Of a stretch of DNA of 40,697 nucleotides, positions 545 to 16,127 are shown piece by piece. Under the pieces are notes generated by a model that made no database searches, was not told where the DNA came from, and was given only the letters and a program-made list of their open reading frames with translations. Every line of letters begins with the position of its first letter. Position 1 is the stretch's first letter. The position numbers and the translations under genes were made by a program. Source of the DNA: a virus (lineage: Duplodnaviria > Heunggongvirae > Uroviricota > Caudoviricetes); the IMG/VR virus record IMGVR_UViG_2541047891_000003; one strand, 5' to 3'.

Positions 545-1663
545 TCAAACAACCAATTTAACCCATTCCTGACCACGAGTATCGTTATAACGATCGGTGG
601 TTGCCTGGACTTTATGTCCCAGTAATGTTTTTGTATCAATACCCTGCGCGCGGTACAGTCGTTCTGACAGGGAGCGTTGTTCATGAAATGTTGGCGGAGT
701 TTTTCCTGCTGGTGGAGTTATCCCAGCCAGATCCCGTGCTTTGGCAAAGTAGTCGCTCAGGTTGTCTTTACTCATCGGCTTTGGTTGTTTCTGGTGCCGA
801 CTATGGATTAGATATGGACTTAATATTCTGTCTCGGCACCCATCAATAACTTCTTTTAACGTTATCCCAATGGCATCACAGCGTAGTGTAAGCGGTAACG
901 CCAGACGCATTCCGGTTTTTCCCTGGGTGATATGCAAGTGTTCGTTCCACACATCTGAAAAACGCATGTGGCAAATGTCATCACGGCGCTGACCAGTAAC
1001 AATCGCAAGGAGCATTGCGTTACGGATAAAGTGTTTTTCAGGCGTTGCGTTGTAAATTTTTTGCCAGTCTTCCAGGGTGAGCCTGGCTCTGGTTACTTTA
1101 GGGATCGGTTTACGGGTAGCCTCAGGAGGATTCCATCCAGGAGGAACTTCCCCTGCATGCTGTGCTTCTTTATAAATATCAACCCATAATCCGCGATTTA
1201 CTCGCGCTGTGCTGACCATGTCTTTATCCAGCCACTCATCCAGTATTAATGCAAAGTCTCTTACTTCCAGTTCTTTCAATGGGTGGTTTCCCAGACGGGA
1301 AACCAGGAATGCAGCCATTCGCGTTTTTTCTTTGTGGGTTGTAGCTGCAATATCTCCATTTTTCAGTCGCGTGTCTTGTATTTTCAGATATCGATCAACC
1401 CATGCCTTTAATCTAATACCCCGACGTTTTGTTGCTGACGGACTTTCATCAATTTTGCGCATGAAATATTCAGCTTCTGCTGCAGCTATTCGCTGATTGG
1501 CTGTGGAAGCGATTTTTTCTGCCTTACCTTTGTCTGTTCCGAGACCGTGAAATTTTCCAGTCACAGGGTTTTTATACTGGTAGTAAACTTTGCCAGTTCT
1601 GCGATCAAATTTTTCGTAAAGTCCGGCTACGTCAGTGCTGTTTTTTCGTGGCCTCGGTGACAT
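545..1663 (-). CDS. int: Tyrosine recombinase, lambda-family integrase
   Basis: 372-aa ORF; C-terminus PPTFHEQRSLSERLYRAQGIDTKTLLGHK...TTDRYNDTRGQEW matches the lambda Int catalytic region (HELRSL...LLGH...Y) as I recall it. Confidence 0.93.
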   Translation of the reverse strand: MSPRPRKNSTDVAGLYEKFDRRTGKVYYQYKNPVTGKFHGLGTDKGKAEKIASTANQRIAAAEAEYFMRKIDESPSATKRRGIRLKAWVDRYLKIQDTRLKNGDIAATTHKEKTRMAAFLVSRLGNHPLKELEVRDFALILDEWLDKDMVSTARVNRGLWVDIYKEAQHAGEVPPGWNPPEATRKPIPKVTRARLTLEDWQKIYNATPEKHFIRNAMLLAIVTGQRRDDICHMRFSDVWNEHLHITQGKTGMRLALPLTLRCDAIGITLKEVIDGCRDRILSPYLIHSRHQKQPKPMSKDNLSDYFAKARDLAGITPPAGKTPPTFHEQRSLSERLYRAQGIDTKTLLGHKVQATTDRYNDTRGQEWVKLVV

Positions 1664-1901
1664 GAGTTAAAATCTCCTTCAGTGCATCATCATCGCCAGT
1701 ATGAATTTCCGGCGCAATTCCCGTTTCACCAGGCCCAACAAATACTGCTCGGCGATCTATCAGCCAACGCCCACGAATTTTTTGTGGTCTTGGAACGATG
1801 TATCCTAGTTTTCCGTATTTCACCAGGGTAGTGTTTGTTATTGGGAGACTGAACCGTTTTGGTTTCCACTCGTCGAGCGTTATCAGGTACTGTTCGCTCA
1901 T
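1632..1901 (-). CDS. xis: Excisionase (Xis-like DNA-binding protein)
   Basis: Small ORF overlapping the int start; ATG at 1901 with GGAG 8 nt upstream (GTG at 1910 is the alternative); excisionase-like sequence and the typical position upstream of int. Confidence 0.75.
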   Translation of the reverse strand: MSEQYLITLDEWKPKRFSLPITNTTLVKYGKLGYIVPRPQKIRGRWLIDRRAVFVGPGETGIAPEIHTGDDDALKEILTHVTEATKKQH

Positions 1902-1962
1902 GGCTATCACTCCGGAACGCGCCAGTTGCAGAATATCAACGACAACTGGCGACGGTTGAACA

Positions 1963-4434
1963 TTAAAAATCAGCCTGATTCGGGATCAGTTTTTGCCAGA
2001 TAGCTGAAACGTATTTTGCCTGGTGACGAGCGTCATCAAGTGCATTATGGCGCTCACCTTCGAATGGAATAGCCGTTCTGGCATCGAAGTCTATGGCTTT
2101 CCCCAGCTCAACGATTGTGCGTACATCGCGATCGTTGTAGTAACGCCACGGGCAGGGGATCCCCTGCCGTTCGTATGAACGGCGCAAAATCGTGTTGTCG
2201 AAGTTTGCTCCATTTCCCCAGACCTGAACAAAAAATTCACCGGAGTTTTCGTCGATAAATTCCCGCAATTGTAACAGTGCATCATCTAACGGGATTTCAT
2301 CGGTCATAATGGCAGATTGCGCTTCGCGTGATTGCTTAAGCCACCATTTAATGGTGTCCCGATCAATGACTCCGCCAGCAGTTTCCAGATCGACAGTCTT
2401 ACTAAATTCCGGTCCCATATCTCCGGTTTGCGGATCGAAAAATATTGCACCTATTGAGATAATCGGGGCATCAGGATTTTTTCCCATGGTTTCAAGGTCG
2501 ATCATCAGATGAATCCCCGCTCTGCTGGTGGATGTGAGATTATGATGACCGTTCGCCTTAATTAAGGGATCTGACGCCTCGCCAGTTTCACTATCGCTGG
2601 CATGATGCTGATTGCCGCCAGTGTTCTCCTTGTGCTGATGCGCAGTGCCTTCCATTTCCTCCGGATCATTTTCCTGAACTTCAGGCTGATTCTCTTCATC
2701 GAATATTTCCTGGTATGTTGCGTCACCCATCACCGCACCACAATCAGGGCAGCTACCGCCGCCGATCTGACCGCAGGCGGTGCAGGCTTTTTCCGGCTCC
2801 TGTTGCGCTACTGGTTCAACCTGTTTCGTTTCTGGCTCGTTTTGTTGCGCATTTGGGCTGTTTTGTTCCGTTTTCTGGTCGTTCTGTTCCGATTCTTGCT
2901 GGTTCTGGTTTACAGAGTCGCGGGTTTCAATCCCCTTCACCCATTTCGGATCATTCGGGTCGCTAATCCCTGCAACAAATTCTCCGCGAGAGGCAGCAAG
3001 CAACTTATCGGCGTCAGGCTGGCTGATATTGGCTGCCTGCATAATTTTGTTTACTTCGTCAGCGGTAACTTTTACCGGCTCTGGTTGTGCGGTCGTGTCA
3101 GATGCACCAGTATTTTGTTGTGAACCTGAGTATGTACCGTTTTTGCGGGCAAAATATTCTTCTTTCGTGATTTCAGTAGCCCCTGCAGTCAGCGCCTTAT
3201 TCAGACCAGAAAGTTTGTTTGCGCGACCATATTTTTCGCCATCCTTATCTGTGAAGAGGAAGTAGAACGGCCCCTCACGCTCTACAGATGGTTCGACTTC
3301 CACTTTGCATTCGGTTTTTTCGTTGTCCGGAATTGCCGTTTCCACTGCATCAGTTTCTGGTACTGGCGACGAGAGAGTATCAGTTGCGCTCTGATTTGTT
3401 CCTTCATCTTCAAACACGCCCTTTGTAGTCAGGTATTCAGTAATGTATTTGTTCAGTGCCACAGGGTCTTTGTGAATGTCGATCGGACGTTCACGGACAA
3501 GGCCAAAAATAGTCTGGCGGTCGTAGCGAAGGGCATCAGGCTGTTTGCGCATTGATGCCGAGATACGCTTCCAGTCTTCGCGGTCGTTGTCGATAACTTC
3601 ATTTTTTGCCCAGCGATGGATGCTGCCGTCAATGTTTCCGGCATCCACATCACCAGGCCAGAGAGCGTAGGCCAGTTCGTCATCCAGTGTTTTCCATGTC
3701 TGCTTGTATTCGCGATGAATGGCAGCAATGACCGGGCTGATTTTTCCTGTTGAATTTTCAGTGTACTGTTGATTGGCTCTGGCGCGGGCGAGATCAACAA
3801 CAGACGTGTATTTTCCGGTTTCCTTGCGTTCACCTTCGCGACGTTTTTTCCAGATGCGCATCTCTGCCTGAATTTCGGGCCATTTAGCACCAGGAATACA
3901 TTTATGCTTAACCCACCCAATGGCATGCAGCTTAAGCTCCGGATACATGGCGTTAACTTCTGGCATTTTCATCAACGCTTCAACGATATGTCCGTCGAAT
4001 GTTGCCATGTCTTCCTGCAACAATTCCTGTGCGCTAATAACCATATCAACGGTGATGTTTTCACATGTGTCGAACTTAACCATGACAGCGTTCTGTACTT
4101 CAGGGGCCAGCTTGTCAAAAGTGACGTTCATCGGATCTGATTCAGTCTCAACCGGGACAAAGGAAGCAGAGTCCTCATCCCAGCGGTTTTCCTGCATATA
4201 TTCAGCATCCCAGGAATCGAGGGCAGGGCGGGGTATACCAGGTTTATCCTCGCAAACAAGAAATTTATAAGCGCAGTCCTGAGCAGCCGGATAATGTTCC
4301 AGGAATTGCCAGTGAAATTTTGCGCGGGCGCGACGTTCATCACCGGATTCAATGGCAGTGGCTACAGCGACTGCACCTTCTTCCTTTATTGCCTGTTCGT
4401 CCGGAATGGCGGCGCAAATAAAGACTTTACTCAT
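1963..4434 (-). CDS. Large putative exonuclease with a C-terminal DnaQ-like DEDDh 3'-5' exonuclease domain and a central Cys4 zinc ribbon (often annotated exodeoxyribonuclease VIII-like)
   Basis: 823-aa ORF; motifs LMIDLETMG and HNALDDARHQAKY near the C-terminus; CTACGQIGGGSCPDCG zinc ribbon; acidic Q/E-rich low-complexity linker. Confidence 0.6.
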   Translation of the reverse strand: MSKVFICAAIPDEQAIKEEGAVAVATAIESGDERRARAKFHWQFLEHYPAAQDCAYKFLVCEDKPGIPRPALDSWDAEYMQENRWDEDSASFVPVETESDPMNVTFDKLAPEVQNAVMVKFDTCENITVDMVISAQELLQEDMATFDGHIVEALMKMPEVNAMYPELKLHAIGWVKHKCIPGAKWPEIQAEMRIWKKRREGERKETGKYTSVVDLARARANQQYTENSTGKISPVIAAIHREYKQTWKTLDDELAYALWPGDVDAGNIDGSIHRWAKNEVIDNDREDWKRISASMRKQPDALRYDRQTIFGLVRERPIDIHKDPVALNKYITEYLTTKGVFEDEGTNQSATDTLSSPVPETDAVETAIPDNEKTECKVEVEPSVEREGPFYFLFTDKDGEKYGRANKLSGLNKALTAGATEITKEEYFARKNGTYSGSQQNTGASDTTAQPEPVKVTADEVNKIMQAANISQPDADKLLAASRGEFVAGISDPNDPKWVKGIETRDSVNQNQQESEQNDQKTEQNSPNAQQNEPETKQVEPVAQQEPEKACTACGQIGGGSCPDCGAVMGDATYQEIFDEENQPEVQENDPEEMEGTAHQHKENTGGNQHHASDSETGEASDPLIKANGHHNLTSTSRAGIHLMIDLETMGKNPDAPIISIGAIFFDPQTGDMGPEFSKTVDLETAGGVIDRDTIKWWLKQSREAQSAIMTDEIPLDDALLQLREFIDENSGEFFVQVWGNGANFDNTILRRSYERQGIPCPWRYYNDRDVRTIVELGKAIDFDARTAIPFEGERHNALDDARHQAKYVSAIWQKLIPNQADF

Positions 4435-4513
4435 TTTGTTTTACCTCATTACAGATTTAAGGGTGAACAAATCCCTGCCATTGCTGGCATATAAAAATGA
4501 AACCGGATATTAA

Positions 4514-4717
4514 TTACGGTGCTGTTTTAAGTCCTGCCGGGATTTCGTTATTATCCTGGTGAATAACTTTATCGACCGGGTAACAGTTACCGGGAATTTT
4601 CTGTTCGGTTGCTGCAGTCACACACTCCTGCATTGTCCTGTGAACACTGACTGCAATATCAACTGGCTCTCCGGAAACAAGAAAAACTGTCAGAACAAGT
4701 GCAAATGCTGTATTCAT
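4514..4717 (-). CDS. ydfD: YdfD-like small protein with an N-terminal signal/TM segment (Qin prophage lysis-protein family)
   Basis: 67-aa product MNTAFALVLTVFLVSGEPVDIAVSVHRTMQEC... from the internal ATG at 4717; lies immediately downstream of dicB as in Qin; overlaps the dicB stop. Confidence 0.65.
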   Translation of the reverse strand: MNTAFALVLTVFLVSGEPVDIAVSVHRTMQECVTAATEQKIPGNCYPVDKVIHQDNNEIPAGLKTAP

Positions 4718-4902
4718 TGCCAACATCCTTTTTGTATCGGACGTAAACGGGCCAGCATTGAAAGAATGCATATTTTATTTAATAACTCCCGTTCGTGTTT
4801 TCTCTTGTTAATGGCATCTTCAGTAAATACAGGGTTACTGATAGTGACACCAATTTCAAAACAACCTTCAGACGTATTAACGTTTGGTAATAACGTTTCC
4901 AT
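4714..4902 (-). CDS. dicB: Cell division inhibitor DicB
   Basis: 62-aa product METLLPNVNTSEGCFEIGVTISNPVFTEDAINKRKHERELLNKICILSMLARLRPIQKGCWQ, near-identical to E. coli DicB as I recall it; ATG verified at 4900-4902; the longer 97-aa track ORF is an upstream extension. Confidence 0.85.
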   Translation of the reverse strand: METLLPNVNTSEGCFEIGVTISNPVFTEDAINKRKHERELLNKICILSMLARLRPIQKGCWQ

Positions 4903-5071
4903 TATCGCGTCCTCAACAATGAATTTTGTGATGCGGTGCCTGGTGCCTCCAGGTGACGTTAACCAGTTAACAATTAACGCCGGATACAGAGAATCCACCC
5001 ATAACACTGTTTTTGGTTTTAACTGTTCCGCGTGCGCTCAGCCGCATTCACCACATCACAAAATTCACTTT

Positions 5072-5129
5072 AAAAAGGGCGGCAGAGCAGTCACGGAGTA
5101 AAACTGATACCGCCAAACGTCACCAGAAA
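5072..5129 (-). ncRNA. dicF: DicF small regulatory RNA (ftsZ-targeting sRNA)
   Basis: Minus-strand sequence TTTCTGGTGACGTTTGGCGGTATCAGTTTTACTCCGTGACTGCTCTGCCGCCCTTTTT matches the DicF sequence I recall; ends in a GC stem plus T-run; about 170 nt upstream of dicB as in Qin. Confidence 0.85.
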
Positions 5130-5463
5130 ATTGATAACAGAGGGCGTTGCAGCGGAGTTGTCACTTAAGCGTATGGTCAACCTGACAACCCGGTGTCCTC
5201 AACGGGGAAGGAATAACCCCGCCATACTTACCGCCGCGCCATTTCGCGGAGTGCCACAACCGGAAGCGCACGGTCGACGAAAATTTAACGACAGGCTATC
5301 TATGAACCAGCTACCTCGCCGTGCGCTTTCGCGTTATGGTCTGACTTTTCAGGGAAATATCCTTTCAGTAAACTGTCAGTGCCGGATGCTCACCCGTGTC
5401 CGGCGCACGCACTCCACCTCACCCGTGGAGAACTCCTTAATCACCAACCCTCAGGAGGGTGAA

Positions 5464-5739
5464 ATGTCGACTGAAAATGATGAAATCATTAACTCCCTGA
5501 TACGCCAGATTAATAATTTTGATAAAGCATTGCAGCATGCTGCGGCGCGTAGTGATATAACTCTTTTAGCAATTTCATTTCTTGCATCTGTTATGGATAA
5601 AAATGAAGTCGTACGACAGAGTCTTGTTGATTATATCGACTCGCTTCAACCCGGCACTTTCAATCATGAGAGCTTCAATCATGAGAAAGAGCATGTTAAG
5701 TCTGTAATTAATTCTCTTATTTTGAATCAAAAGAATTAA
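5464..5739 (+). CDS. Hypothetical 91-aa protein encoded antisense to the dicB operon
   Basis: ATG at 5464 preceded by a strong RBS (AGGAGGGTGAA); product MSTENDEIINSLIRQINNFDKALQ...; no family recognised; the N-terminal extension of the track ORF starting at 5131 is probably not coding. Confidence 0.5.
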   Translation: MSTENDEIINSLIRQINNFDKALQHAAARSDITLLAISFLASVMDKNEVVRQSLVDYIDSLQPGTFNHESFNHEKEHVKSVINSLILNQKN

Positions 5740-6037
5740 TGCTTTTTGTTGCAAAGTAATTTTCAAGGGGTTCTATTCGAATCCCTTTCTTTTTCATTAA
5801 CAAGCCAAACCCCTTATCAATGATGTCCATTAGATCCAGGAAGTGTTTTTCATGTAAATCCTGGTTATCAGAGAGCTGCTTCTCTTCGTACAGACCGATA
5901 AAGGCACGACGCACGTTACCGGATATAGTATCGATGGTTTCTTTTTCTACGGTACTCAGGTCAAGAGTCGCCAGTTGGGAACGAACTATATTCGCTGCCA
6001 TTTCCTGGAATTGCATTGGTAAATCTTTAAATTCCAT
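5717..6037 (-). CDS. Hypothetical 106-aa protein within the ydfABC-dicF-dicB operon
   Basis: ATG at 6037 with GAGG about 8 nt upstream, 22 nt after the ydfC stop (coupled arrangement); no family recognised. Confidence 0.55.
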   Translation of the reverse strand: MEFKDLPMQFQEMAANIVRSQLATLDLSTVEKETIDTISGNVRRAFIGLYEEKQLSDNQDLHEKHFLDLMDIIDKGFGLLMKKKGIRIEPLENYFATKSINSFDSK

Positions 6038-6059
6038 TATTAGCCTCGTTGGTTAGCTA

Positions 6060-6278
6060 TTAACGTGGGTATGTAATCATTCTGGCAATGCTTAATGCCG
6101 CTGCTTTTTGCAGCCTGGTGATATCCTGCTCCAGAGCGGACAGATTTTCAGTCTGCTTAGCCCTGGCTTCATTGGCCCATTTCAGATCCTGCGCTGCATT
6201 AATTTTCTGGCGCATCCACTCATAAAGTTCATCATCGGTATAGTCTGGCGCGATGATGACGGGTTCTCGTTTCTGCAT
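6060..6278 (-). CDS. ydfC: YdfC-like small protein
   Basis: 72-aa ORF in the position and size of Qin ydfC, directly downstream of ydfB. Confidence 0.6.
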   Translation of the reverse strand: MQKREPVIIAPDYTDDELYEWMRQKINAAQDLKWANEARAKQTENLSALEQDITRLQKAAALSIARMITYPR

Positions 6279-6307
6279 ACTGATTCCTCGCGGTGCTGTT
6301 TCGCTTA

Positions 6308-6436
6308 TCAGCCGTTAGATTTTGCCGAACTGGAAAGCGCCTGTTTAAACTCACTGAAGCTGAGAGCTTCTTCGCCTTCGGCAAGGCCTTCGAAGTATTC
6401 TTCGTAAGCCTTTTCCATGATTGCGTCGAAATCCAT
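6308..6436 (-). CDS. ydfB: YdfB-like small protein (42 aa)
   Basis: Hand-translated MDFDAIMEKAYEEYFEGLAEGEEALSFSEFKQALSSSAKSNG; not in the ORF track because it is under 60 aa; start 1 nt after the ydfA stop. Confidence 0.6.
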   Translation of the reverse strand: MDFDAIMEKAYEEYFEGLAEGEEALSFSEFKQALSSSAKSNG

Positions 6437-6437
6437 A

Positions 6438-6593
6438 TCACTCACCTGAATTTCTTTCCAGCCAGCGACGCGCGCCAGATTCGGTTTTAAACGTTTTGCT
6501 TTTGGTATACGTCATCGCGGTGAACGTACCGTCCTGGTTTGGGAACACGCCGTATACCAGAGATTCGTTGTTGCCAAGATCGATAGTATCCAT
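6438..6593 (-). CDS. ydfA: YdfA-like small protein (51 aa)
   Basis: Hand-translated MDTIDLGNNESLVYGVFPNQDGTFTAMTYTKSKTFKTESGARRWLERNSGE; length and sequence consistent with Qin YdfA from memory; not in the ORF track. Confidence 0.65.
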   Translation of the reverse strand: MDTIDLGNNESLVYGVFPNQDGTFTAMTYTKSKTFKTESGARRWLERNSGE

Positions 6594-6761
6594 GTTGACC
6601 TCATTTCCCCTTAACGCCGGGGTAGCGGAACTAAGACCTGTCGCACCGTTGTGCTTTGATGGAATACATTGTTCTCTCTAGGTGAACAAAAGTCAACATA
6701 ATGAATACATAAAAGGTAAAAAAAACCGCCTTGCGGCGGTATGATTCTGTAAAATAAAGAA

Positions 6762-7151
6762 TTATTTTTGTCGTGTTATTGGGTCGACGTATTCTGAGTA
6801 AAATTCGGTCAGTTTTTGAAGTCGCATTTGAAAAGCTGCCAGCATATTTCTACGTTCTACGGGTGGCAGGTTTCTGTAAACATCAAGCAGGGCCTTCTCG
6901 TCATCATCAAGCGCTTCTCTATTTGTCTCTTCTTTCCCTGTCAGTAGCCAAGAAAGGGAAACGTTTGTGGCTTCTGCAATTTTGGCTGCGGAATCTTTAC
7001 TGATTGTTCCTCTTTTTTTCCATGCGTTGACTGATGAACGACCTACACCAGCGATACGCGCTAAATCTGAACCACTTAAATGATGCTGTTGAGAGATCGC
7101 ATCTAACCTTTCTGCTAGCGGGGTGTCGTATTGCTTTTTTCTCATGTCCAT
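6762..7151 (-). CDS. Prophage repressor, HTH (XRE/CI-like) DNA-binding protein, functional analogue of DicA/CI
   Basis: 129-aa ORF with an HTH-like segment LSGSDLARIAGVGRSSVNAWKKRG; divergent from a Cro-like gene across an operator-rich intergenic region. Confidence 0.75.
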   Translation of the reverse strand: MDMRKKQYDTPLAERLDAISQQHHLSGSDLARIAGVGRSSVNAWKKRGTISKDSAAKIAEATNVSLSWLLTGKEETNREALDDDEKALLDVYRNLPPVERRNMLAAFQMRLQKLTEFYSEYVDPITRQK

Positions 7152-7166
7152 TTAGCAATTATAACC

Positions 7167-7250
7167 GTTCAGTGAACACTAACAATTCCTCGAGGTGTTG
7201 ACTTATGTTCGTTTTAAGTGAACAATTGTTGTGGTTAGTTGAACTGGAGG
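7167..7250. promoter_or_regulatory. Immunity-region operator/promoter cluster (palindrome GTTCAGTGAAC, repeated GTGAAC/GTTGAAC half-sites, -35-like TTGACT)
   Basis: Palindrome at 7167-7177; related half-sites at 7216-7244; TTGACT at 7198-7203; lies between the divergent repressor and cro-like genes. Confidence 0.5.
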
Positions 7251-7254
7251 TTGT

Positions 7255-7530
7255 ATGACAGCATTGGACAAAGCAATAAAGATTGCTGGTGGTATTCGTC
7301 CGCTAGGGCGTGCAATAGGGGCTTGGCCATCTCAAATACACAAATGGGCAAATGAATACAATGGTCGAGTTCCGACGGGGGAACGGGTTCGTCAAATTTA
7401 TATTGCAACTGGGGTTACTCCTCATGAATTGCGACCAGATTTATACCCGAATCCAACTGACGGGTTGCCTGCTGGAGATAAGGCTAACACACCAAATACA
7501 CCGGAGTTGATTCATGAAAATCAAGCATGA
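7255..7530 (+). CDS. Cro/DicC/YdaS-like HTH regulator
   Basis: 91-aa ORF MTALDKAIKIAGGIRPLGRAIGAW...ELRPDLYPNP; divergent from the repressor; resembles YdaS-type Cro analogues. Confidence 0.65.
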   Translation: MTALDKAIKIAGGIRPLGRAIGAWPSQIHKWANEYNGRVPTGERVRQIYIATGVTPHELRPDLYPNPTDGLPAGDKANTPNTPELIHENQA

Positions 7531-7939
7531 ACACATCCGTATGGCGATGAATGCCTGGGCGCATCCGGACGGTGAAAAAGTTCCGGCAGCTGAAATAACC
7601 CGGGCTTATTTTGAGCTGGGTATGACGTTCCCGGAGCTATATGACGACAGCCATCCGGAAGCGCTGGCTCGTAATACCCAGAAAATTTTCCGTTGGCTGG
7701 ATAAAGACACCCCTGATGCGGTTAAAAAAATTCAGGCGTTGTTACCAGCGATCGAAAAAGCAATGCCACCTTTGCTGGTGGCCCGAATGCGCAGCCACAG
7801 TTCAGCCTATTTTCGGGAACTGGTGGAGACGCGGGAACGACTGGTGAGAGACGCTGATGATTTTGTCGCAGTGGCGATCGCTGGTTTCAACCAGATGAAT
7901 CGTGGTGGCCCGGCGGGAAATATTGTGGTTGTGCATTGA
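7514..7939 (+). CDS. YdaT-like protein (CII-like regulator family)
   Basis: 141-aa ORF starting MKIKHEHI as I recall YdaT does; overlaps the end of the cro-like gene. Confidence 0.6.
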   Translation: MKIKHEHIRMAMNAWAHPDGEKVPAAEITRAYFELGMTFPELYDDSHPEALARNTQKIFRWLDKDTPDAVKKIQALLPAIEKAMPPLLVARMRSHSSAYFRELVETRERLVRDADDFVAVAIAGFNQMNRGGPAGNIVVVH

Positions 7940-8010
7940 CTGACAATATTCATACCGGATCGCTTCCGGCAATTCGTGAGTAAAAAGATTCGCTATCAGA
8001 AGAGGTGAGT

Positions 8011-9081
8011 ATGGCTAACGCCTGGCTCAGATTATGGCATGACATGCCAAATGACCCTAAGTGGCGAACAATTGCCAGGGTGTCAGGGCAGCCAATTGCA
8101 ACAGTGATGGCAGTGTATATCCACCTCCTGGTGAGCGCGTCACGAAATGTCACGCGAGGTCACATTGATGTCACGACAGAAGATTTGGCAAGTGCGCTCG
8201 ACGTGACAGAAGAGGTAATTGATTCAATTTTGCAGACGATGCAGGGGCGGGTACTTGATGGTGATTTAATCACTGGATGGGAAAAACGCCAGGTGCTGAA
8301 AGAGGACAACGGCAATATTTCGCAAACCGCAAAATCTCCTGCAGAGCGCAAGAGGGCGCAGCGAGAGAGGGAAAGAAAGCGGGAACAAAATGGAGATTGT
8401 CACGGCGCGTCACGAAATGTCACGCACATGTCACGACGAGTCACGACAGATAAAGATACAGATAAAGATACAGATCAAGAAGATCAAAACACTATGGTCC
8501 ATGGCGTAAAAAACGCCACGAACCAGGCAGGGGATGTTCAGACCGTCAATCCTGGTCAGCCAGCAGGCACGACACCGGAAGCCGATTCAGCGTATGCGCT
8601 GAAAGCCGATTCGGGCGCTGTGCAGCAGGTGATGACCGCAAGGCCGGAGCAATCACACCAACTGCAGCAGCCTGAAGCCGATTCCGCCATTCAGCGGGAA
8701 GCCGATCGGGTAGTCCCGGAAAACACCGGGCAGCCTGTGGGACGAGTGGATTATCCGGATGTGTTCGAACAGGTCTGGCGGGAATACCCGTTGCGTGCCG
8801 GGGCAAACCCGAAGAAATCCGCTTTCAGTGCCTGGAAGGCCAGATTACGCGAGGGGGTGTCACCAGAGGCCATGCTGGATGGCGTGAGGCGTTACGCAAG
8901 ATACCTTGCGGCTACCGGGAAAACGGGAACGGAATTTGTTCAGCGAGCGACGACGTTTTTTGGACCGGACCGGAATTTTGAAAACCCCTGGCTGCTCCCG
9001 GTAAGCGGCACGAACAACCAGCGTTGTGTGAATCATATTTCTGAACCGGATACCGAAATTCCGCTGGGCTTCAGGGGGTAA
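8011..9081 (+). CDS. Replication initiator / replisome organiser (O-like, YdaU-type N-terminal domain)
   Basis: ATG at 8011 with RBS AGAGGTGA upstream; N-terminal replisome-organiser-like region; iteron repeats embedded in the coding sequence. Confidence 0.65.
   Translation: MANAWLRLWHDMPNDPKWRTIARVSGQPIATVMAVYIHLLVSASRNVTRGHIDVTTEDLASALDVTEEVIDSILQTMQGRVLDGDLITGWEKRQVLKEDNGNISQTAKSPAERKRAQRERERKREQNGDCHGASRNVTHMSRRVTTDKDTDKDTDQEDQNTMVHGVKNATNQAGDVQTVNPGQPAGTTPEADSAYALKADSGAVQQVMTARPEQSHQLQQPEADSAIQREADRVVPENTGQPVGRVDYPDVFEQVWREYPLRAGANPKKSAFSAWKARLREGVSPEAMLDGVRRYARYLAATGKTGTEFVQRATTFFGPDRNFENPWLLPVSGTNNQRCVNHISEPDTEIPLGFRG
8137..8480. repeat. Iteron array (GTCACG-containing direct repeats) plus GATAAAGATACA tandem repeat; candidate replication origin inside the initiator gene
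   Basis: 19-mer GCGTCACGAAATGTCACGC at 8137-8155 and 8407-8425; TCACGACAGA at 8171-8180 and 8441-8450; GATAAAGATACA x2 at 8450-8473. Confidence 0.6.
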
Positions 9082-9121
9082 GTGTTTATTTCAGCTCATG
9101 AGGTAATTTTCAGGAGGACTT

Positions 9122-9529
9122 GTGGCAAAAGTTTTTACACAAGAAGAGCGGGAAAAAATTAAAGGGCAGGTTGTTGAACTTGTACGCCAGAGTGGGCGCG
9201 AGACGTTACGACAACTGGAAGCTAAAACCGGGGCAACAAGATATCTGATGAGTGTTCTCGCCAGAGAGCTGGTTGCCAGTGGCGATGTATACAATTCTGG
9301 CTACGGGTTATTCCCGTCTGAACAGGCTCGTAAGGACTGGCAAAACGCCCGCAAAAAACTCTCAAGGGCAAAGCTGAAGAAAAAAACACCTGTGGTTGAT
9401 CCGGACCTTATCTGGTCGTTACCAGACGGAGAAATACGTCGTTATGACAGGCGTCAGAACATAATCTGTAGCGAGTGCCGGGAAAGCGAAGTTATGCAGC
9501 GTATACTAACGTTCTATTGGGGAATATAG
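9122..9529 (+). CDS. Hypothetical protein (possible winged-helix DNA-binding protein)
   Basis: 135-aa ORF with GTG start and GGAGG 4 nt upstream; no family recognised. Confidence 0.5.
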   Translation: MAKVFTQEEREKIKGQVVELVRQSGRETLRQLEAKTGATRYLMSVLARELVASGDVYNSGYGLFPSEQARKDWQNARKKLSRAKLKKKTPVVDPDLIWSLPDGEIRRYDRRQNIICSECRESEVMQRILTFYWGI

Positions 9530-9544
9530 CCACTAAATAAGGTA

Positions 9545-9856
9545 ATGAACCAAATGAACACGGAAAAAGCGAAAACGCAGCTCAGGATAATGCTTGCCGG
9601 TCCGGCTGCGAGTTATGCGACACATTCACCAGCCATAAAAAAGGTTCTTGATGAACTGGAGGCCAAAGACAAGCGCATTGCAGAACTGGAGGCAAGGGAA
9701 GTCCAGCTACCGGCTGGCTATGAACTTCGATATGGACACCCGATAAATGCTGATGAGCGCCATGTCATGATACCTAAGGAAAATGGCAGCTGGATTTATC
9801 TGGCTGATTTAGAGCGCGCACTACGTGTTGCTGGCATTCGCATCAAAGGAGAGTGA
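9545..9856 (+). CDS. Hypothetical protein
   Basis: 103-aa ORF; the start may instead be the ATG at 9554. Confidence 0.5.
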   Translation: MNQMNTEKAKTQLRIMLAGPAASYATHSPAIKKVLDELEAKDKRIAELEAREVQLPAGYELRYGHPINADERHVMIPKENGSWIYLADLERALRVAGIRIKGE

Positions 9857-9857
9857 C

Positions 9858-10214
9858 GTGGAAATAAAACCAGAAGATGAGTTAAGTAATATTGTTTTAT
9901 TTCCGGTAAAAGAAGATGACCCACGTAATCAGGTTAATTTTCTTTATGAGCCATCGGAAAGACCATATTGCCATCACGCTTCTGTCCGGGTTGATGAAAA
10001 AGAGCGTCAGGTCCGCTGTAAAATCTGCGGTGCAGTTGTGGAGCCGTTTGACTGGATGCTCTCTGTGGCGAAAAGAGAAACCAGACTGGCAGATGATGTA
10101 AGGCTATTGCGTCAGGAGGAACGGGAAAGGCGGAAAAATATAGAAAAGCTAATTCAGATTGAGCGTAACGCAAAAGCGCGGATACGCAGAGCGACAAAAT
10201 CCAGAACTGAATAA
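9858..10214 (+). CDS. Hypothetical zinc-ribbon protein
   Basis: GTG at 9858 preceded by AAGGAGAG; CHH...CKIC motif; basic C-terminus. Confidence 0.5.
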   Translation: MEIKPEDELSNIVLFPVKEDDPRNQVNFLYEPSERPYCHHASVRVDEKERQVRCKICGAVVEPFDWMLSVAKRETRLADDVRLLRQEERERRKNIEKLIQIERNAKARIRRATKSRTE

Positions 10215-10307
10215 TTAAATTTAGCACGGTTAAAAATTTAATCCTTTACCGGAGGGATTTCTGCACCCTCAGAACAGCAGGAGACCACCCGAAAGGGCGG
10301 TAGTGAA

Positions 10308-10490
10308 ATGCGAAAGTTCAAAGTAATTATTGAAACTGGAATAGCTGGTGGAGATTTTGAGGATGTATTCGAAGTGGACGATGACGCAACACCTGATGAA
10401 ATTCATGACGAAGCAAAAGAAATTTTCTTTAACTACTGCAATTACTCATATCACGAAATAAAAGACGAAGAGGAAGAACAAAATGGCTGA
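10308..10490 (+). CDS. Hypothetical acidic small protein
   Basis: 60-aa ORF, 8-nt overlap with the next small ORF. Confidence 0.45.
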   Translation: MRKFKVIIETGIAGGDFEDVFEVDDDATPDEIHDEAKEIFFNYCNYSYHEIKDEEEEQNG

Positions 10491-10659
10491 TTTTGGTTCA
10501 ACTAAATATAACGCCAGTTTTGAAGAATGGCATGAACTGTTAATGGACTATGCAGAGTTACGCGGTGGAAGTGCCGCCGATGCTGAAGCATGGCGTGATG
10601 ACTATGAAGCAGGAAAAACTCCGGTCGAAGCATATTGTGATGAGTGGGGCTATGAATGA
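10483..10659 (+). CDS. Hypothetical 58-aa protein (not in the ORF track)
   Basis: Hand-translated MADFGSTKYNASFEEWHELLMDYAELRGGSAADAEAWRDDYEAGKTPVEAYCDEWGYE; ATGA overlap with the downstream gene at 10656. Confidence 0.5.
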   Translation: MADFGSTKYNASFEEWHELLMDYAELRGGSAADAEAWRDDYEAGKTPVEAYCDEWGYE

Positions 10660-11171
10660 GCGAGATTAATTATCAGGAAGGGCATGAAACGGCAGGGCAG
10701 GCAAAACCAGTTGCATGGCGATATCGCTACGTGAAAAAAGGCGTTACGGACTTTCAGGAGAAGATGTGGGTTGGTGACTGGAAATATGTACCGACAAAAG
10801 AGGATTGCAACGACAGGCCGAGCTATGAGATTCAGGCATTATTCACTACCCCGCCAGTCCCGGTGATATCAGAAGGACTGGTTAAAGCCGTGCGCTTTTA
10901 TGAACAGGTAAAGCGTGAGAATCCACCAGTCGAAACAGGAGCATGGAAAGATGCTGTTGATTGGGTACTCAAAGAGGCCTGCTGTGCTGTCATTCTGGGT
11001 AAAGCCGACAATCCACTAGCATCCAGTAATCAGGTTGGCGAATTAACAATGTGGGTTAAACGACTGGTCAGTCAACTGAAAAAAGCTAATCCAGACTGCA
11101 AATTACCGGAGATGGCGATGGATTACCTGAAACGAAATGGACTGATAAGCGTGGAGGATGTTTTACGATGA
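10656..11171 (+). CDS. Hypothetical protein
   Basis: 171-aa ORF, translationally coupled to its neighbours. Confidence 0.6.
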   Translation: MSEINYQEGHETAGQAKPVAWRYRYVKKGVTDFQEKMWVGDWKYVPTKEDCNDRPSYEIQALFTTPPVPVISEGLVKAVRFYEQVKRENPPVETGAWKDAVDWVLKEACCAVILGKADNPLASSNQVGELTMWVKRLVSQLKKANPDCKLPEMAMDYLKRNGLISVEDVLR

Positions 11172-11251
11172 CCTGGCCTGAAGCATTCACAACGGTAGGA
11201 ATCGCACTGGCGGTGGCGCTGGTGGTGTATTCGATTTGCCGCTGGGGGTGA
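11168..11251 (+). CDS. Hypothetical 27-aa hydrophobic peptide (not in the ORF track)
   Basis: ATGA overlap with the upstream stop; MTWPEAFTTVGIALAVALVVYSICRWG is a single TM helix. Confidence 0.35.
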   Translation: MTWPEAFTTVGIALAVALVVYSICRWG

Positions 11252-11294
11252 TAAGTGGAATAGTGCGGGGTATCGTGCAGCCCCGCTGATTTGA

Positions 11295-11468
11295 TTATTT
11301 ATTTGGGGAGACAATGTCCTGAAGCGTGACGATTACTTCTTCATCTGTATCTGTATTTCGGAGTTGATATGTAATGTCGTCGTTTCTAATAATTTGCACT
11401 ACAAGCCATTCTCCATTTTTTTCACATAAGTGAACAGTACTGTTTTCCGATATACCATGAACGGTCAT
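11295..11468 (-). CDS. Hypothetical 57-aa protein (not in the ORF track)
   Basis: Hand-translated MTVHGISENSTVHLCEKNGEWLVVQIIRNDDITYQLRNTDTDEEVIVTLQDIVSPNK; AAGG about 9 nt upstream; AT-rich. Confidence 0.4.
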   Translation of the reverse strand: MTVHGISENSTVHLCEKNGEWLVVQIIRNDDITYQLRNTDTDEEVIVTLQDIVSPNK

Positions 11469-11679
11469 TTTTATACCTTTTGTGTTGTGTGAAGGAGCAG
11501 TATAGTCAGAAATGAGACAAGTGAAAGGGGATAGAAAGTAATAGTTTGTTTTTGTAGAATTGCTGCGGGTGCTTGAGGCTATCTGCCTCGGGCATGAACA
11601 CCAACGGCAGATAGAGAAAAGCCCCAGTTAACATTACGCGTCCGGCAAGACGCTTAACATTAATCTGAGGCATATCTGT

Positions 11680-11880
11680 ATGCGACACATAAAGATTAGC
11701 CTCTTAACAGTAAGAAATCAACTAACAGGGGGCTGTAATGCGAAGGAGCTATGTGTTTTGTCTGGTGGTGGTTTGCATCACCATTCTGATATTTGTCGGG
11801 ATGGTTCGCGGTTCGCTATGCGAGCTGCACATCAGGCAGGGAAACACAGAGCTTTCAGCGTATTTAGCCTACGAAGTTGA
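11680..11880 (+). CDS. mok: mok-like overlapping reading frame of a hok-family locus
   Basis: 66-codon ORF starting upstream of, and overlapping in another frame, the hok-like toxin ORF, as in hok/mok/sok loci. Confidence 0.4.
   Translation: MRHIKISLLTVRNQLTGGCNAKELCVLSGGGLHHHSDICRDGSRFAMRAAHQAGKHRAFSVFSLRS
11693..11721 (-). promoter_or_regulatory. sok: Candidate promoter for a Sok-like antisense RNA (minus strand: -35 TTGATT, 17-bp spacer, -10 TAATCT)
   Basis: Promoter-like hexamers on the minus strand positioned so the transcript would be complementary to the mok start region. Confidence 0.35.
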
Positions 11881-11890
11881 AAAACGTTAA
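11738..11890 (+). CDS. hok: Hok/Gef-family type I toxin (50 aa)
   Basis: Hand-translated MRRSYVFCLVVVCITILIFVGMVRGSLCELHIRQGNTELSAYLAYEVEKR; matches the Hok/Gef pattern (TM helix, SLCE motif, conserved C-terminal AYxAYE); GGGGG RBS upstream; not in the ORF track. Confidence 0.85.
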   Translation: MRRSYVFCLVVVCITILIFVGMVRGSLCELHIRQGNTELSAYLAYEVEKR

Positions 11891-11961
11891 GAGCTACGGC
11901 GGGGAGCAATTCCCGCCACTCTTTAAGTTGTCAGGTATCCTCAATGCACCCGCACTTAACC

Positions 11962-12012
11962 CGCTTTAGCGCTGATTTATGGGGATCCCTCAGCGCTTCG
12001 GCGGGTTTTTTG
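11962..12012 (+). terminator. Strong Rho-independent terminator (nested hairpin CCGC..GCGCTGA...TCAGCGC..GCGG then TTTTTT)
   Basis: Long imperfect hairpin followed by T-run 12007-12012; about 70 nt after the hok stop, consistent with a hok mRNA 3' end. Confidence 0.7.
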
Positions 12013-12093
12013 TTGTTTATTTTCGGTGAGCATGATGCATCTGGTTGTACTGATGTGGCTGGCTGATTCTGTTATTCAGGTGGCTTATTGCTG

Positions 12094-12121
12094 TTGATTG
12101 GTATGTCTTCACGGCTAGAAT
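12094..12121 (+). promoter_or_regulatory. Sigma70-like promoter candidate (TTGATT, 16-bp spacer, TAGAAT)
   Basis: Good hexamers with 16-bp spacing; followed by the perfect 12-bp palindrome CCCCTTAAGGGG at 12160-12171. Confidence 0.45.
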
Positions 12122-12201
12122 CGAGGATCTTAAGTAGCGCGCAGGGAGAAGAGGGATGGACCCCTTAAGGGGAGGTGTTTAAAGTTCACGGGATTTTGGT
12201 T

Positions 12202-12369
12202 ATGAACGATAAGGAATTAATTGCTGCGCTCTCTGTACCTGGTAATTATGAAGTAATAGTTCTTGAGAATGGTGAATTTATCGTAATGCCATTGCCACCC
12301 GATGTTATTCTGATCACCAAAGAATCGCATGCGGATTCGGTCAGTCACTTCAGCATTAAGAAAGACTAG
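12202..12369 (+). CDS. Hypothetical small protein
   Basis: ORF MNDKELIAALSVPGNYEVIVLENGEFIVMPLPPDVILITKESHADSVSHFSIKKD; start uncertain (GTG at 12175 sits immediately after the RBS). Confidence 0.4.
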   Translation: MNDKELIAALSVPGNYEVIVLENGEFIVMPLPPDVILITKESHADSVSHFSIKKD

Positions 12370-12435
12370 ATTATAATGCCGTAGTTAAAGCCAGCCTGAA
12401 CAACTGGCGTCTGTCGCACCATTACGAGGATAGTA

Positions 12436-12714
12436 GTGGTGCATTACAAGAAAATTAACAATTCTGATAATACAGCCGTCTTTGCCAGCAGGCACGGGCG
12501 GCGTTCTCATGCATTTAAATCTGACTGGTTCCAGCATGACCCATGCACTGAAGAACAGGCCGAATGGCTGATTCAGAACTATCGCAGACGTGGGTGTGAG
12601 TTTAGGAAAGCCCTCAGCCTCGATTATCGTCACTGGATAATCTACGTCAGGCTCCCTTATTCCGAACGCCCACCACGCCCGTCCCGCACATTCCAGCAAC
12701 GGATCTGGAGGTAA
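12436..12714 (+). CDS. Hypothetical protein
   Basis: 92-aa ORF with GTG start and GAGG 6 nt upstream; directly precedes the ydfU-like gene. Confidence 0.5.
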   Translation: MVHYKKINNSDNTAVFASRHGRRSHAFKSDWFQHDPCTEEQAEWLIQNYRRRGCEFRKALSLDYRHWIIYVRLPYSERPPRPSRTFQQRIWR

Positions 12715-12715
12715 C

Positions 12716-13765
12716 GTGCGGGTATTACTTCGACCTGTTCCGATACCGGAACTCGGGCTGGTGGTCCTTAAACCAGGCCGTGAATCCATGCAGGTATTTC
12801 ATAACTCTCGAGTGCTGGTGGAGCCGGAACCGAAAAGCATGCGCGGCCTGCCATCCGGGGTCGTCCCTGCCGTTCGCCAGCCGCTGGCTGAGGATAAATC
12901 ATTACTGCCATTTTTCAGCGATGAGCGGGTGATTCGTGCTGCTGGCGGCGCTGGCGCATTGTTTGACTGGTTACTGCGCCATGTTAAATCCTGCCAGTGG
13001 CCACACGGCGATTATCATCACAGCGAAACCGTCATTCACCGTTATGGTACCGGCGCGATGGTGTTGTGCTGGCACTGCGACAACCAGTTGCGTGACCAGA
13101 CATCCGAATCACTCGGGCAACTTGCTCATCAAAACCTGTCAGCATGGATGATTGACGTCATACGCCATGCAATGAATGGCACACAGGAGCGGGAATTATC
13201 GCTGGCTGAATTATCCTGGTGGGCAGTCTGCAATCAGGTGGCGGACGCGCTACCGGAGACAGTATTACGTCGTTCTCTGAGGTTACGTGCGGAAAAAATC
13301 CGCTCGGTGTACCGCGAAAGCGACATCATGCCGGGAGAGCAGACAGCCACCAGCATACTGAAGCAGCGCACAAAAAATATTGTGCTATCGCCTCACGCCC
13401 ACCAGCAACAGAACTCACCGCAGGAAAAGGCGGTGGTCAGCATTGCTGTTGATCCTGAGTCTCCGGAATCTTTCATGAAGCGACCTAAACGTCGCCGTTG
13501 GGTAAATGAGAAATATACGCGCTGGGTAAAGACACAGCCGTGTGCGTGTTGTGGTAAGCCAGCCGACGATCCCCATCACCTGATTGGTCACGGTCAGGGA
13601 GGGATGGGAACAAAGGCCCACGATATTTTCACGCTACCGTTGTGCCGGGAACATCACAATGAACTTCATGCGGATCCGCTGGCGTTCGAAGAAAAGCATG
13701 GTTCCCAGGTTGATTTAATTTTTCGTTTTCTTGATCACGCCTTTGCAACCGGCGTGCTCGGGTAA
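12716..13765 (+). CDS. ydfU: YdfU-like protein (DUF968, Cys/His-rich C-terminus)
   Basis: 349-aa ORF; C-terminus CACCGKPADDPHHLIGHGQGGMGTKAHD...CREHHNELH; same length as Qin YdfU. Confidence 0.7.
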   Translation: MRVLLRPVPIPELGLVVLKPGRESMQVFHNSRVLVEPEPKSMRGLPSGVVPAVRQPLAEDKSLLPFFSDERVIRAAGGAGALFDWLLRHVKSCQWPHGDYHHSETVIHRYGTGAMVLCWHCDNQLRDQTSESLGQLAHQNLSAWMIDVIRHAMNGTQERELSLAELSWWAVCNQVADALPETVLRRSLRLRAEKIRSVYRESDIMPGEQTATSILKQRTKNIVLSPHAHQQQNSPQEKAVVSIAVDPESPESFMKRPKRRRWVNEKYTRWVKTQPCACCGKPADDPHHLIGHGQGGMGTKAHDIFTLPLCREHHNELHADPLAFEEKHGSQVDLIFRFLDHAFATGVLG

Positions 13766-13777
13766 AAGAGGTTACTG

Positions 13778-14152
13778 ATGCGTATAGAGTTTGTTTTGCC
13801 TTATCCGCCGACGGTGAATACTTACTGGCGACGTCGTGGCAACACATATTTTGTATCAAAAGCCGGTGAGCGTTATCGTCGTGATGTGGCGCTCATTGTT
13901 CGCCAGCAGCGACTGAAATTAAACCTGTCCGGAAGGCTGGCGATAAAGATTATTGCAGAGCCACCGGATAAGCGCCGTCGTGACCTGGACAATATTCTGA
14001 AAGCACCACTGGATGCGCTGACGCATGCGGGACTGCTTATCGATGACGAGCAGTTTGATGAAATCAATATTGTGCGAGGTCAGGTCGTTCCTGGTGGTCG
14101 GCTGGGCGTGAAGATTTACGAAATAATGCATGACGGGCAGGTCCAAAAATGA
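13778..14152 (+). CDS. rusA: RusA-family Holliday junction resolvase
   Basis: 124-aa ORF with the RRRDLDNxxKAxxDALT motif typical of RusA. Confidence 0.85.
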   Translation: MRIEFVLPYPPTVNTYWRRRGNTYFVSKAGERYRRDVALIVRQQRLKLNLSGRLAIKIIAEPPDKRRRDLDNILKAPLDALTHAGLLIDDEQFDEINIVRGQVVPGGRLGVKIYEIMHDGQVQK

Positions 14153-14970: not shown

Positions 14971-14975
14971 TGTTG

Positions 14976-15003
14976 TTGATTTTTCCCGAATCTGTGGTAA
15001 ATT
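14976..15003 (+). promoter_or_regulatory. pR'-like late promoter candidate (TTGATT, 16-bp spacer, TAAATT)
   Basis: Hexamers just downstream of the Q stop; TAAATT resembles the lambda pR' -10 as I recall it. Confidence 0.5.
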
Positions 15004-15052
15004 TTCTCTAACGATGGGCGTTTTATGCCTGACGTTACAAGGATTTTTACAG

Positions 15053-15074
15053 CCCGCCATCGAGCGGGTTTTTT
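15053..15074 (+). terminator. tR'-like Rho-independent terminator (CCCGC-catcga-GCGGG then TTTTTT)
   Basis: 5-bp GC stem plus T-run about 50 nt downstream of the candidate pR' start, implying a short 6S-like transcript. Confidence 0.55.
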
Positions 15075-15209
15075 ATATCTGGAAAGCGGTGCATAACGTT
15101 AAACGTGATGGCGATTGCGCAATGAGTTTCTCCTGCTCTGAAGTCTCTTGACTGCATGGAATCTCCTTTGTTATGTAAGGTGAGTTAATGTTTTAAAATT
15201 GTTAGAGAG

Positions 15210-15929: not shown

Positions 15930-16051
15930 TATTGCCTGAGTAACTTTCTGTTGACCGCTCAGATTCTTTTATCATGTGTAGGCCAATATGCAGGATTTAA
16001 TCAGGGTAGGGTATTGCAGAGCTAAACTGGCATAAGTATTATTCCGCATAT

Positions 16052-16127
16052 GGCCCTTTAGCTCAGTGGTGAGAGCGAGCGACTCATAATCGCCAGGTCG
16101 CTGGTTCAAATCCAGCAAGGGCCACCA
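16052..16127 (+). tRNA. ileZ: tRNA-Ile2 (anticodon CAU, lysidine type; could alternatively be tRNA-Met)
   Basis: Cloverleaf with acceptor GGCCCTT/AAGGGCC, anticodon loop CTCATAA, T-loop TTCAAAT, CCA end; close to E. coli ileX as I recall it. Confidence 0.8.

Follow-up and report, generated by a model that had tools for sequence, protein, structure and literature searches.

The virus record IMGVR_UViG_2541047891_000003 (Caudoviricetes) is a prophage sequence of 40,697 nucleotides, referred to below as the window, and carries on its minus strand a gene for a large protein of the YdfE family that ends in a predicted exonuclease domain. We analyzed this gene, the segments of its product and its surroundings by sequence comparison, domain searches and structure prediction. 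The segments are as follows, with coordinates given for the window and residue numbers for the 823-residue (aa) protein.

1963..4434, minus strand: exonuclease gene (YdfE family) from the open reading frame (ORF) list, 823 aa, ATG start.
3817..4434, minus strand: YdfE-type N-terminal platform, aa 1-206, with two confidently predicted domains, one alpha/beta (1-97) and one helical (103-206).
3415..3702, minus strand: helical domain common to RecE, aa 245-340, matched by BLASTP to RecE 278-336 onward; predicted local distance difference test (pLDDT) score of about 80-90 in AlphaFold2.
3139..3273, minus strand: small beta-beta-alpha domain, aa 388-432 (GPFYF...KNG), between two disordered linkers; AlphaFold2 pLDDT of about 85.
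2560..3045, minus strand: RecE-like segment, aa 464-625, with about 80% identity to Rac RecE; it extends to the module-swap junction in an acidic linker.
2740..2784, minus strand: Cys4 motif CTACGQIGGGSCPDC (C-x2-C-x7-C-x2-C by regular expression), aa 551-565, a putative zinc knuckle.
1996..2511, minus strand: predicted DEDDh 3'-5' exonuclease domain (Rv2179c/DexA family), aa 642-813, Pfam PF16473, E 1.7e-67.

The frame is real as judged from the ORF list, and an identical protein is already present in NCBI under GCA_000460155.1 with the Pfam families YdfE_N (PF27430), YdfE_C (PF27432) and Rv2179c-like; the YdfE_N and YdfE_C assignments are precomputed Pfam matches of this exact protein. PHROG 2082, labelled 'exonuclease', covers the protein from end to end. 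Residues 1-256 are 98% identical to the translated pseudogene ydfE (b1577) of the Qin prophage in E. coli K-12, and both genes have ydfD, dicB, dicF, ydfC/B/A and dicA-like genes as neighbours. In K-12, an IS2E element interrupts the gene after codon 256 and the rest of the reading frame, exonuclease part included, is gone, whereas the copy in the window is uninterrupted. The gene in the window is the intact, full-length form of K-12 ydfE.

Most of the remaining protein upstream of the exonuclease domain resembles RecE. BLASTP against K-12 RecE aligned residues 262-625 with RecE 278-591 (E 1e-58), an alignment that includes the Cys4 motif and the acidic linker, and it is over residues 464-625 that the identity to Rac RecE reaches the value given above. 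At the DNA level, blastn showed 75.5% identity between window positions 3010..2561 (aa 475-625) and recE codons 455-591. The homology ends at residue 625, corresponding to RecE 591, just before the nuclease domains of both proteins. In RecE, the PD-(D/E)XK 5'-3' nuclease is assigned to residues 564-866 (PMC11611040). No Pfam match to a PD-(D/E)XK nuclease was obtained in the window protein, and a tblastn search with RecE 600-866 gave no match across the window. Consistently, the NCBIfam RecE equivalog NF007259 scored 266 bits against a cutoff of 1269 and matched aa 246-626 only (model positions 271-603). Since the homology to RecE stops right in front of the DEDDh domain in one protein and the PD-(D/E)XK domain in the other, we interpret the window protein as a RecE-family body in which the PD-(D/E)XK module has been exchanged for a DEDDh module at aa 625 (RecE 591). 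It also differs from Rac RecE in its first 260 residues, which are of another type (YdfE_N), and in having no recT downstream. Some close relatives of the window protein carry a Rac-type N-terminus instead, with 72% identity to RecE 50-273.

The initial annotation of this gene had described the product as an N-terminal region of unknown function followed by an acidic, Q-rich low-complexity linker, a Cys4 motif and a C-terminal DEDDh-like 3'-5' exonuclease domain. The last three elements were recovered in our analysis: Q and N account for 17 and D and E for 10 of the 46 residues at aa 505-550, D and E make up 15 of the 66 residues at aa 575-640, the putative zinc-binding motif lies between these two stretches, and the exonuclease domain has the PF16473 match together with five catalytic residues. 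The N-terminal region can now be assigned to YdfE_N/YdfE_C and is partly homologous to RecE. What had been overlooked is the RecE-family origin of the non-catalytic two thirds of the protein, the identity with full-length ydfE, and the extent of the annealase absence considered below, which applies to an entire phage type.

The Cys4 motif was detected in the window protein and in K-12 RecE (aa 517-531) only, and in none of 29 more distant representatives by the same regular expression, a pattern that suggests an insertion specific to this lineage within a disordered linker. For aa 1-463, an AlphaFold2 model based on 84 sequences displayed four confident domains (1-97, 103-206, 245-340 and 388-432) separated by linkers predicted to be disordered at aa 209-239, 344-385 and 438-463. 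The domain at aa 245-340 is the most widely conserved part of the family, with T249, L250, E253, A255 and W291 among the near-invariant columns of the 84-sequence alignment, and it was matched in many family representatives, at differing positions. The small domain at aa 388-432 is conserved in relatives that end in Rad52-like or PD-(D/E)XK modules. The N-terminal region showed neither sequence nor fold similarity to any annealase family, and the idea of a hidden annealase in this part of the protein was rejected.

The DEDDh domain is the sole Pfam domain above threshold in the scan, with 227 bits against a cutoff of 27 and coverage of profile positions 2-177 of 177. The nearest solved structure by sequence is T4 DexA (exonuclease A; PDB 8kel/8ken), matched with an E-value of 1.7e-6 from the single sequence and of 2.3e-17 with a profile of ten relatives. 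The predicted catalytic residues D646, E648, D746, H796 and D801 align with D7, E9, D119, H186 and D191 of T4 DexA, so that the two proteins share the PF16473 family and all five DEDDh residues. D646, H796 and D801 are invariant in the ten relatives, down to approximately 50% identity, and E648 and D746 are each substituted in one of them. The identity to DexA is about 28% over about two thirds of the domain. DexA is a standalone protein of 227 aa with extra loops, whereas the domain in the window is the C-terminal quarter of an 823-aa protein. D90 of DexA is kept as D718, whereas W152 and D169 are replaced by Y766 and A780, the match of D169 with A780 being less certain as the alignment is gapped nearby. 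An AlphaFold2 model of aa 441-823 reached a mean pLDDT of only 34, owing to a shallow alignment limited to near-identical homologues, and was not used.

The gene is widespread. Matches were found in 4780 of 5426 complete E. coli genomes (88%), with a median of two places per genome, and 3533 genomes hold a place that covers at least 80% of the gene. The copies in E. coli are named 'exonuclease' or '3'-5' exoribonuclease domain-containing protein' in RefSeq, and among sequenced phages the gene is carried, for example, by Tritos, mEp460 and the PPompW phages of enterohaemorrhagic E. coli. This distribution bears on the idea that the gene is in decay, as what is left of a RecE derivative after the loss of RecT, and no longer has a function. 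Cryptic prophages do hold many of the copies, the one in K-12 is a pseudogene, and fragmentary versions are common in protein databases. However, the near-complete gene in so many complete genomes, its occurrence in the records of sequenced phages (Tritos, mEp460 and PPompW) and the retention of the full-length frame and the five catalytic residues down to approximately 51-62% identity, in Enterobacterales and in a Vibrio phage, make decay a highly improbable explanation.

The neighbourhoods of the homologues were analyzed in two sets. All of the 80 IMG/VR loci that share the central segment have a DEDDh C-terminus, and about 20 of these have a Rac-type rather than a YdfE-type N-terminus. The second set, 80 loci in species-representative genomes, contained approximately 33 fused forms (640-828 aa) and approximately 45 standalone forms (180-240 aa). 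For nearly all of the fused forms, an integrase gene is located 0.8-1.2 kb downstream. Among the standalone forms, at least 7 directly follow an SSB gene; 4 of these also have Erf upstream, and 2 are followed by Abc2. The annealase query panel was limited and may have overlooked divergent annealases in the vicinity of some standalone copies. A fuller module of this kind, Erf-SSB-exo-Abc2, was observed in phage mEp235, and such modules also occur in several enterobacterial genomes. The standalone exonucleases of the mEp235 type (182-190 aa) are 59-63% identical to the window domain, have the same catalytic residues and are likewise located near xis/int in the early-left operon, but they lack the platform and stand beside genes for an annealase, SSB and an anti-RecBCD protein, whereas the window lacks all three. 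In a Vibrio phage, the DEDDh domain is encoded between a RecA-like NTPase and a Cas4-like exonuclease.

A partner annealase was sought in the relatives, as the initial annotation had proposed. No RecT, Bet, Erf, lambda Exo, Gam or RecE-type nuclease was found in the flanks of the 80 IMG/VR loci, the window and one further locus (L002; n=82), and no RecT, Bet, Erf or Rad52-like match was found within 10 kb of the approximately 33 fused genes. The DEDDh domain keeps company with recombination genes, and the fused form never occurs with an annealase of its own.

The platform was followed beyond the DEDDh proteins. An exhaustive search with aa 1-463 retrieved just 188 representatives (50% clustering) among 1.84 billion proteins, and 58 long representatives were sorted by BLASTP against reference modules into four types of C-terminus.

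DEDDh (Rv2179c-like) C-terminus: approximately 10 representatives.
RecE or DUF3799-type PD-(D/E)XK C-terminus: approximately 12 representatives.
Third, apparently Rad52-like, C-terminal module: approximately 21 representatives.
Fourth C-terminal module, without a nuclease domain: approximately 7 representatives.

N-termini of the YdfE type and of the Rac RecE type (PF06630) each occur with all four C-terminal modules. The third module matched standalone proteins of about 243 aa that are annotated as 'Rad52/Rad22 family' by NCBI/JGI (E ~1e-66), some of them with PF04098, and the Pfam model Rad52_Rad22 (PF04098) was detected below threshold at the signature helix in 7 of 10 members (best E 0.004); a profile of the module gave no match against PDB sequences. 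Based on the similarity to the standalone proteins and the sub-threshold matches, we consider the third module to be a Rad52-like annealase. The fusions concerned (P0128, P0131, P0133, P0155, P0168 and approximately 16 more) carry the label 'exonuclease' through PHROG 2489/7838, and the Pfam annotation was empty in the five that were scanned. At one locus (L090, 7001-8518) such a Rad52-like fusion occupies the same position as the exonuclease gene in the window and is followed by Sipho_Gp157, DUF4224 and int. The fourth module is found in P0126, P0224, P0236 and many proteins of about 620-630 aa from Enterobacter and Cronobacter (P0401-P0460). PGAP calls them 'exodeoxyribonuclease VIII' though no nuclease domain was detected, and they probably correspond to the nuclease-less 'RecE-2' of PMC12315714.

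These fusions, and the relationship to DexA, bear on a role of the protein in lytic growth, either in host takeover by nucleotide salvage or in anti-defence by destroying defence nucleic acids or signals. Temperate lambdoid phages generally do not degrade the host chromosome, which argues against takeover. T4 DexA, the nearest relative with a solved structure, scavenges DNA of the host (PMC12153337), and PF16473-type domains are present in 1295 phage records, many of which are from virulent phages. The initial annotation had suggested 'anti-defence or DNA-processing'. The second half of this suggestion is plausible, but for the first no known anti-defence family was matched in Pfam, PHROG or PADLOC, where a weak generic hit (E 1.9e-5) was all that was obtained. 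Recombination is suggested by the fusion with a RecE-type platform and by the Erf-SSB-exo-Abc2 surroundings of the standalone homologues, and we regard a takeover or anti-defence nuclease as quite improbable.

The initial annotation had also stated that no RecT/Bet-like gene is present between the exonuclease gene and dicB. This holds for the whole 40.7-kb window. The only minus-strand ORFs between the two genes are the YdfD-like DUF1482 gene and dicB itself, tblastn searches of the window gave no match, whether the query was RecT, lambda Bet, the Erf protein of P22 or of mEp235, either of two Rad52-like proteins or a Sak4-like protein, and neither did queries for SSB, Gam and Abc2. A Pfam scan of the early-left and early-right ORFs detected no annealase family. 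Neither full-length RecE homology with a 5'-3' exonuclease fold nor an annealase that had escaped attention was found. We agree with the initial annotation that the protein is not a classical recombination exonuclease of the RecE/lambda Exo 5'-3' type, in view of the low RecE model score, the missing PD-(D/E)XK domain and the missing RecT/Bet.

The absence of an annealase is accompanied by a large number of Chi sites.

Plus strand, 13 Chi sites (GCTGGTGG): 708, 2524, 7285, 7774, 10344, 11218, 12757, 12814, 17288, 20309, 23843, 30042, 30221.
Minus strand, 4 Chi sites (GCTGGTGG): 13347, 13399, 17687, 17997.

The 17 sites (708..30228) compare with 1.58 +/- 1.33 in 100 shuffles of the window, with a maximum of 6. 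The 13 top-strand sites are on the late-gene strand. The position of cos was inferred from the terminase genes; with cos placed directly before them, near 18.3 kb, 9 of the 13 sites are in the rightmost 45% of the virion map. One site (2524-2531) lies inside the exonuclease gene. Lambdoid phages without Rec modules or anti-RecBCD functions have been reported to be rich in actively oriented Chi sites that cluster rightward (Zheng et al., Genome Res 2025, PMC12315714), and such Chi-rich phages have been proposed to form concatemers by RecBCD-Chi recombination, although RecBCD-aided growth was demonstrated for phage LLS only (PMC12315714). The same study describes, in its Table 1, a 'Tritos' type with a nuclease, without single-strand annealing protein (SAP), SSB and anti-RecBCD, and with 7-21 top-strand Chi sites, and reports DnaQ-like nucleases in some Rec modules as well as sporadic DnaQ-type genes near int (PMC12315714). 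The window prophage is of the Tritos type: the nuclease is present, SAP, SSB and anti-RecBCD are absent, and the sequence is rich in Chi. Phage Tritos itself, the prototype of the type, encodes a protein of the same length, gp27 (823 aa), with 94.6% DNA identity across the aligned region, and shares the int-xis-exo-ydfD-dicB-DicF layout without any difference of substance. An annealase is missing from the whole phage type, not from this locus alone.

The genes around the exonuclease gene identify the operon to which it belongs.

545..1663, minus strand: lambda-type integrase (Pfam Arm-DNA-bind_1 and Phage_integrase).
1632..1910, minus strand: excisionase (Pfam Exc), directly downstream of the exonuclease gene with a gap of 52 bp.
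4514..4771, minus strand: YdfD-like DUF1482 lysis protein (Pfam DUF1482, E 9e-25), directly upstream of the exonuclease gene.
4714..5007, minus strand: dicB (Pfam DicB, E 6e-37, ORF aa 36-97), with a 62-aa product at the 3' end of the ORF.
5077..5128, minus strand: DicF small RNA (Rfam RF00039, 76.7 bits, E 2.3e-15).
6762..7151, minus strand: CI/DicA-like repressor (Pfam Phage_CI_repr and HTH_3).

The true start of the YdfD-like ORF is probably internal, giving 67 aa, which is the length of the gene call at locus L171. Only small genes (YdfD-like, DicB, DicF and YdfC/YdfB/YdfA-like ORFs) separate the exonuclease gene from the CI-like repressor on the minus strand, and the order is that of Qin: dicA-like, ydfA/B/C-like, dicF, dicB, ydfD and ydfE, then xis and int. 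The order exonuclease-xis recurs in phage Tritos and in E. coli P393-F10. The exonuclease gene is the last large gene of the early-left (dicBF-type) operon in a lambdoid prophage of the Qin/Tritos type, an operon that is presumably controlled by the CI/DicA-like repressor. In K-12, the dicBF operon, ydfE included, is under DicA repression (PMC10448788). No promoter-like site was found in the 79-bp gap upstream of the exonuclease gene.

Several other features of the window were noted. Inside the leftward operon, an ORF without a family match (5131-5739, plus strand) runs in the opposite direction between DicF and the ydfC-like gene; a 145-aa gene is called at L171:4696-5133 (minus strand). The DicF/dicB-upstream region (4918-5082) has approximately 80% DNA identity to the kilS/kilR region of Rac (L003 8250-8416; KilS small RNA), which suggests that the DicF and KilS loci are related. 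The early-right genes encode YdaS, YdaT, an O-like protein, DUF977, DUF968/HNH, RusA and Q according to Pfam. The nin-like region retains the DUF968/HNH-like protein (12716-13765, plus strand) and the RusA Holliday-junction resolvase (13778-14152, plus strand) despite the missing annealase. A sok antitoxin RNA at 11567-11740 (plus strand; Rfam RF01794, 98 bits) indicates a hok/sok-type toxin-antitoxin locus in the early-right region. Four consecutive tRNA genes are located at 16052-16358 (plus strand), between the Q antiterminator gene and the lysis genes that follow.

Another reading is that the protein works on RNA, as an exoribonuclease of 3'-5' polarity with phage or host transcripts as its substrates, and has a part, for example, in the maturation or turnover of the dicBF polycistronic RNA. 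PF16473 takes its name from Rv2179c, an exoribonuclease of M. tuberculosis, PGAP names many copies '3'-5' exoribonuclease', and the gene is co-transcribed with DicF, itself a product of RNA processing. On the other hand, the sequence searches led to a single relative of solved structure, DexA, which is a DNA exonuclease, the homologue neighbourhoods consist of DNA-recombination genes, and the processing of DicF in K-12 requires RNase III and RNase E and works despite the truncated ydfE. We therefore consider a role in RNA metabolism very unlikely.

The location of the gene is also relevant for a role in superinfection exclusion or defence, in which a nuclease expressed from the prophage would digest incoming phage DNA or RNA. 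The gene adjoins int, a frequent site of accessory genes, and is very widely retained, as judged from the 4780 genomes with matches. Its operon neighbour DicB protects against some phages (PMC6832061). Defence functions have been reported for two groups of such nucleases. EcD ('HREX'), an E. coli exonuclease of the DexA family, is reported to digest 5-hydroxymethylcytosine (5hmC) DNA and, from a plasmid, to protect against T4 (PMC12153337); ISG20-like DEDDh 'TONDO' proteins with auxiliary domains, some of them in prophages, are reported to defend against RNA phages (PMC13344964). EcD belongs to the same domain family as the window protein and also comes from E. coli, and we considered whether the two are the same. 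This was rejected, since EcD is a different, standalone protein whose primer-derived termini, MIDTET and TIPETYD, were matched by no locus examined. The window protein also lacks the signature of the 5hmC defenders, in which D90 is lost and W152 and D169 are kept, as it has retained the aspartate (D718) and has Y766 and A780 at the two other positions. PADLOC-DB 2.0 returned nothing beyond the weak hit mentioned above, a generic Cas-associated DEDDh match. The gene is part of a repressor-controlled early-left operon with the toxic genes dicB and ydfD, which makes expression in a stable lysogen unlikely, and RecE and the Rad52-like annealase fusions have the same platform, which points to recombination. 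A defence function is thus unlikely in our judgement.

Taken together, the sequence comparisons suggest that the protein is most likely a 3'-end DNA-processing enzyme that is made upon induction. We infer the time of expression from the DicA repression of the dicBF operon in K-12 and from the absence of a promoter-like site in front of the gene: induction would lead to synthesis of the protein together with DicB, DicF and YdfD. The protein would act as a Mg2+-dependent 3'-to-5' exonuclease on the 3' ends of DNA, and the RecE-type platform would bring it to the partner or site that is used by the platform of RecE. It would not be one half of a two-component exonuclease/annealase recombinase of the RecET or lambda Red type. 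Since the phage has no annealase and many Chi sites in the correct orientation, it is probably the RecBCD-Chi-RecA pathway of the host that forms concatemers by recombination, and the exonuclease might trim 3' tails or flaps and in this way prepare DNA ends for RecBCD, a step that is our own suggestion. Such an accessory role in end processing alongside RecBCD-Chi-RecA is the function that we favour, at about an even chance of being correct, because the platform is fused to recombination enzymes elsewhere and standalone homologues are found in Erf-SSB-Abc2 modules.

Several points weigh against this proposal. Rv2179c, the namesake of PF16473, is described as an exoribonuclease, and the substrate of the window protein could consequently be RNA. 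The K-12 gene is truncated by IS2, and the fold searches with the platform gave no lead on a partner. Furthermore, 3'-5' exonucleases that act on single-stranded DNA usually inhibit homologous recombination rather than promote it, and DnaQ-type genes close to int are not counted as part of the Rec module unless they are contiguous with Rec genes (PMC12315714).

The recurrence of the platform with different C-termini leads us to a broader idea. It is possible, though we hold this with somewhat less than even confidence, that the RecE/YdfE platform serves lambdoid early-left operons in general as a docking module for interchangeable C-terminal effectors. The protein, the family models, the PHROG and the nuclease-only, Chi-rich phage type had all been catalogued before. 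Literature searches on ydfE with exonuclease, and on Rv2179c with phage, gave nothing relevant, and no description of the combinatorial use of the platform, including the Rad52-like fusion, was found in the literature searched, although it may already be published.

Few prophage genes in E. coli are as common as this one, yet the full-length members of the family have not been studied, probably because the K-12 copy is truncated. The labels 'exodeoxyribonuclease VIII' and 'exonuclease' are attached to relatives that end in a putative Rad52-like annealase or in a non-nuclease module, and if the docking idea is true many of the 'exonuclease VIII' labels in the databases would be wrong. The platform would then have a conserved function of its own, for instance in the binding of a host factor or of DNA ends, and the window protein would deliver a 3'-5' exonuclease to the target of the platform. 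The combination of a RecE body with a DexA-type nuclease offers a direct handle on the role of the large N-terminal part of RecE, and on how Chi-rich lambdoid phages without an annealase handle their DNA ends.

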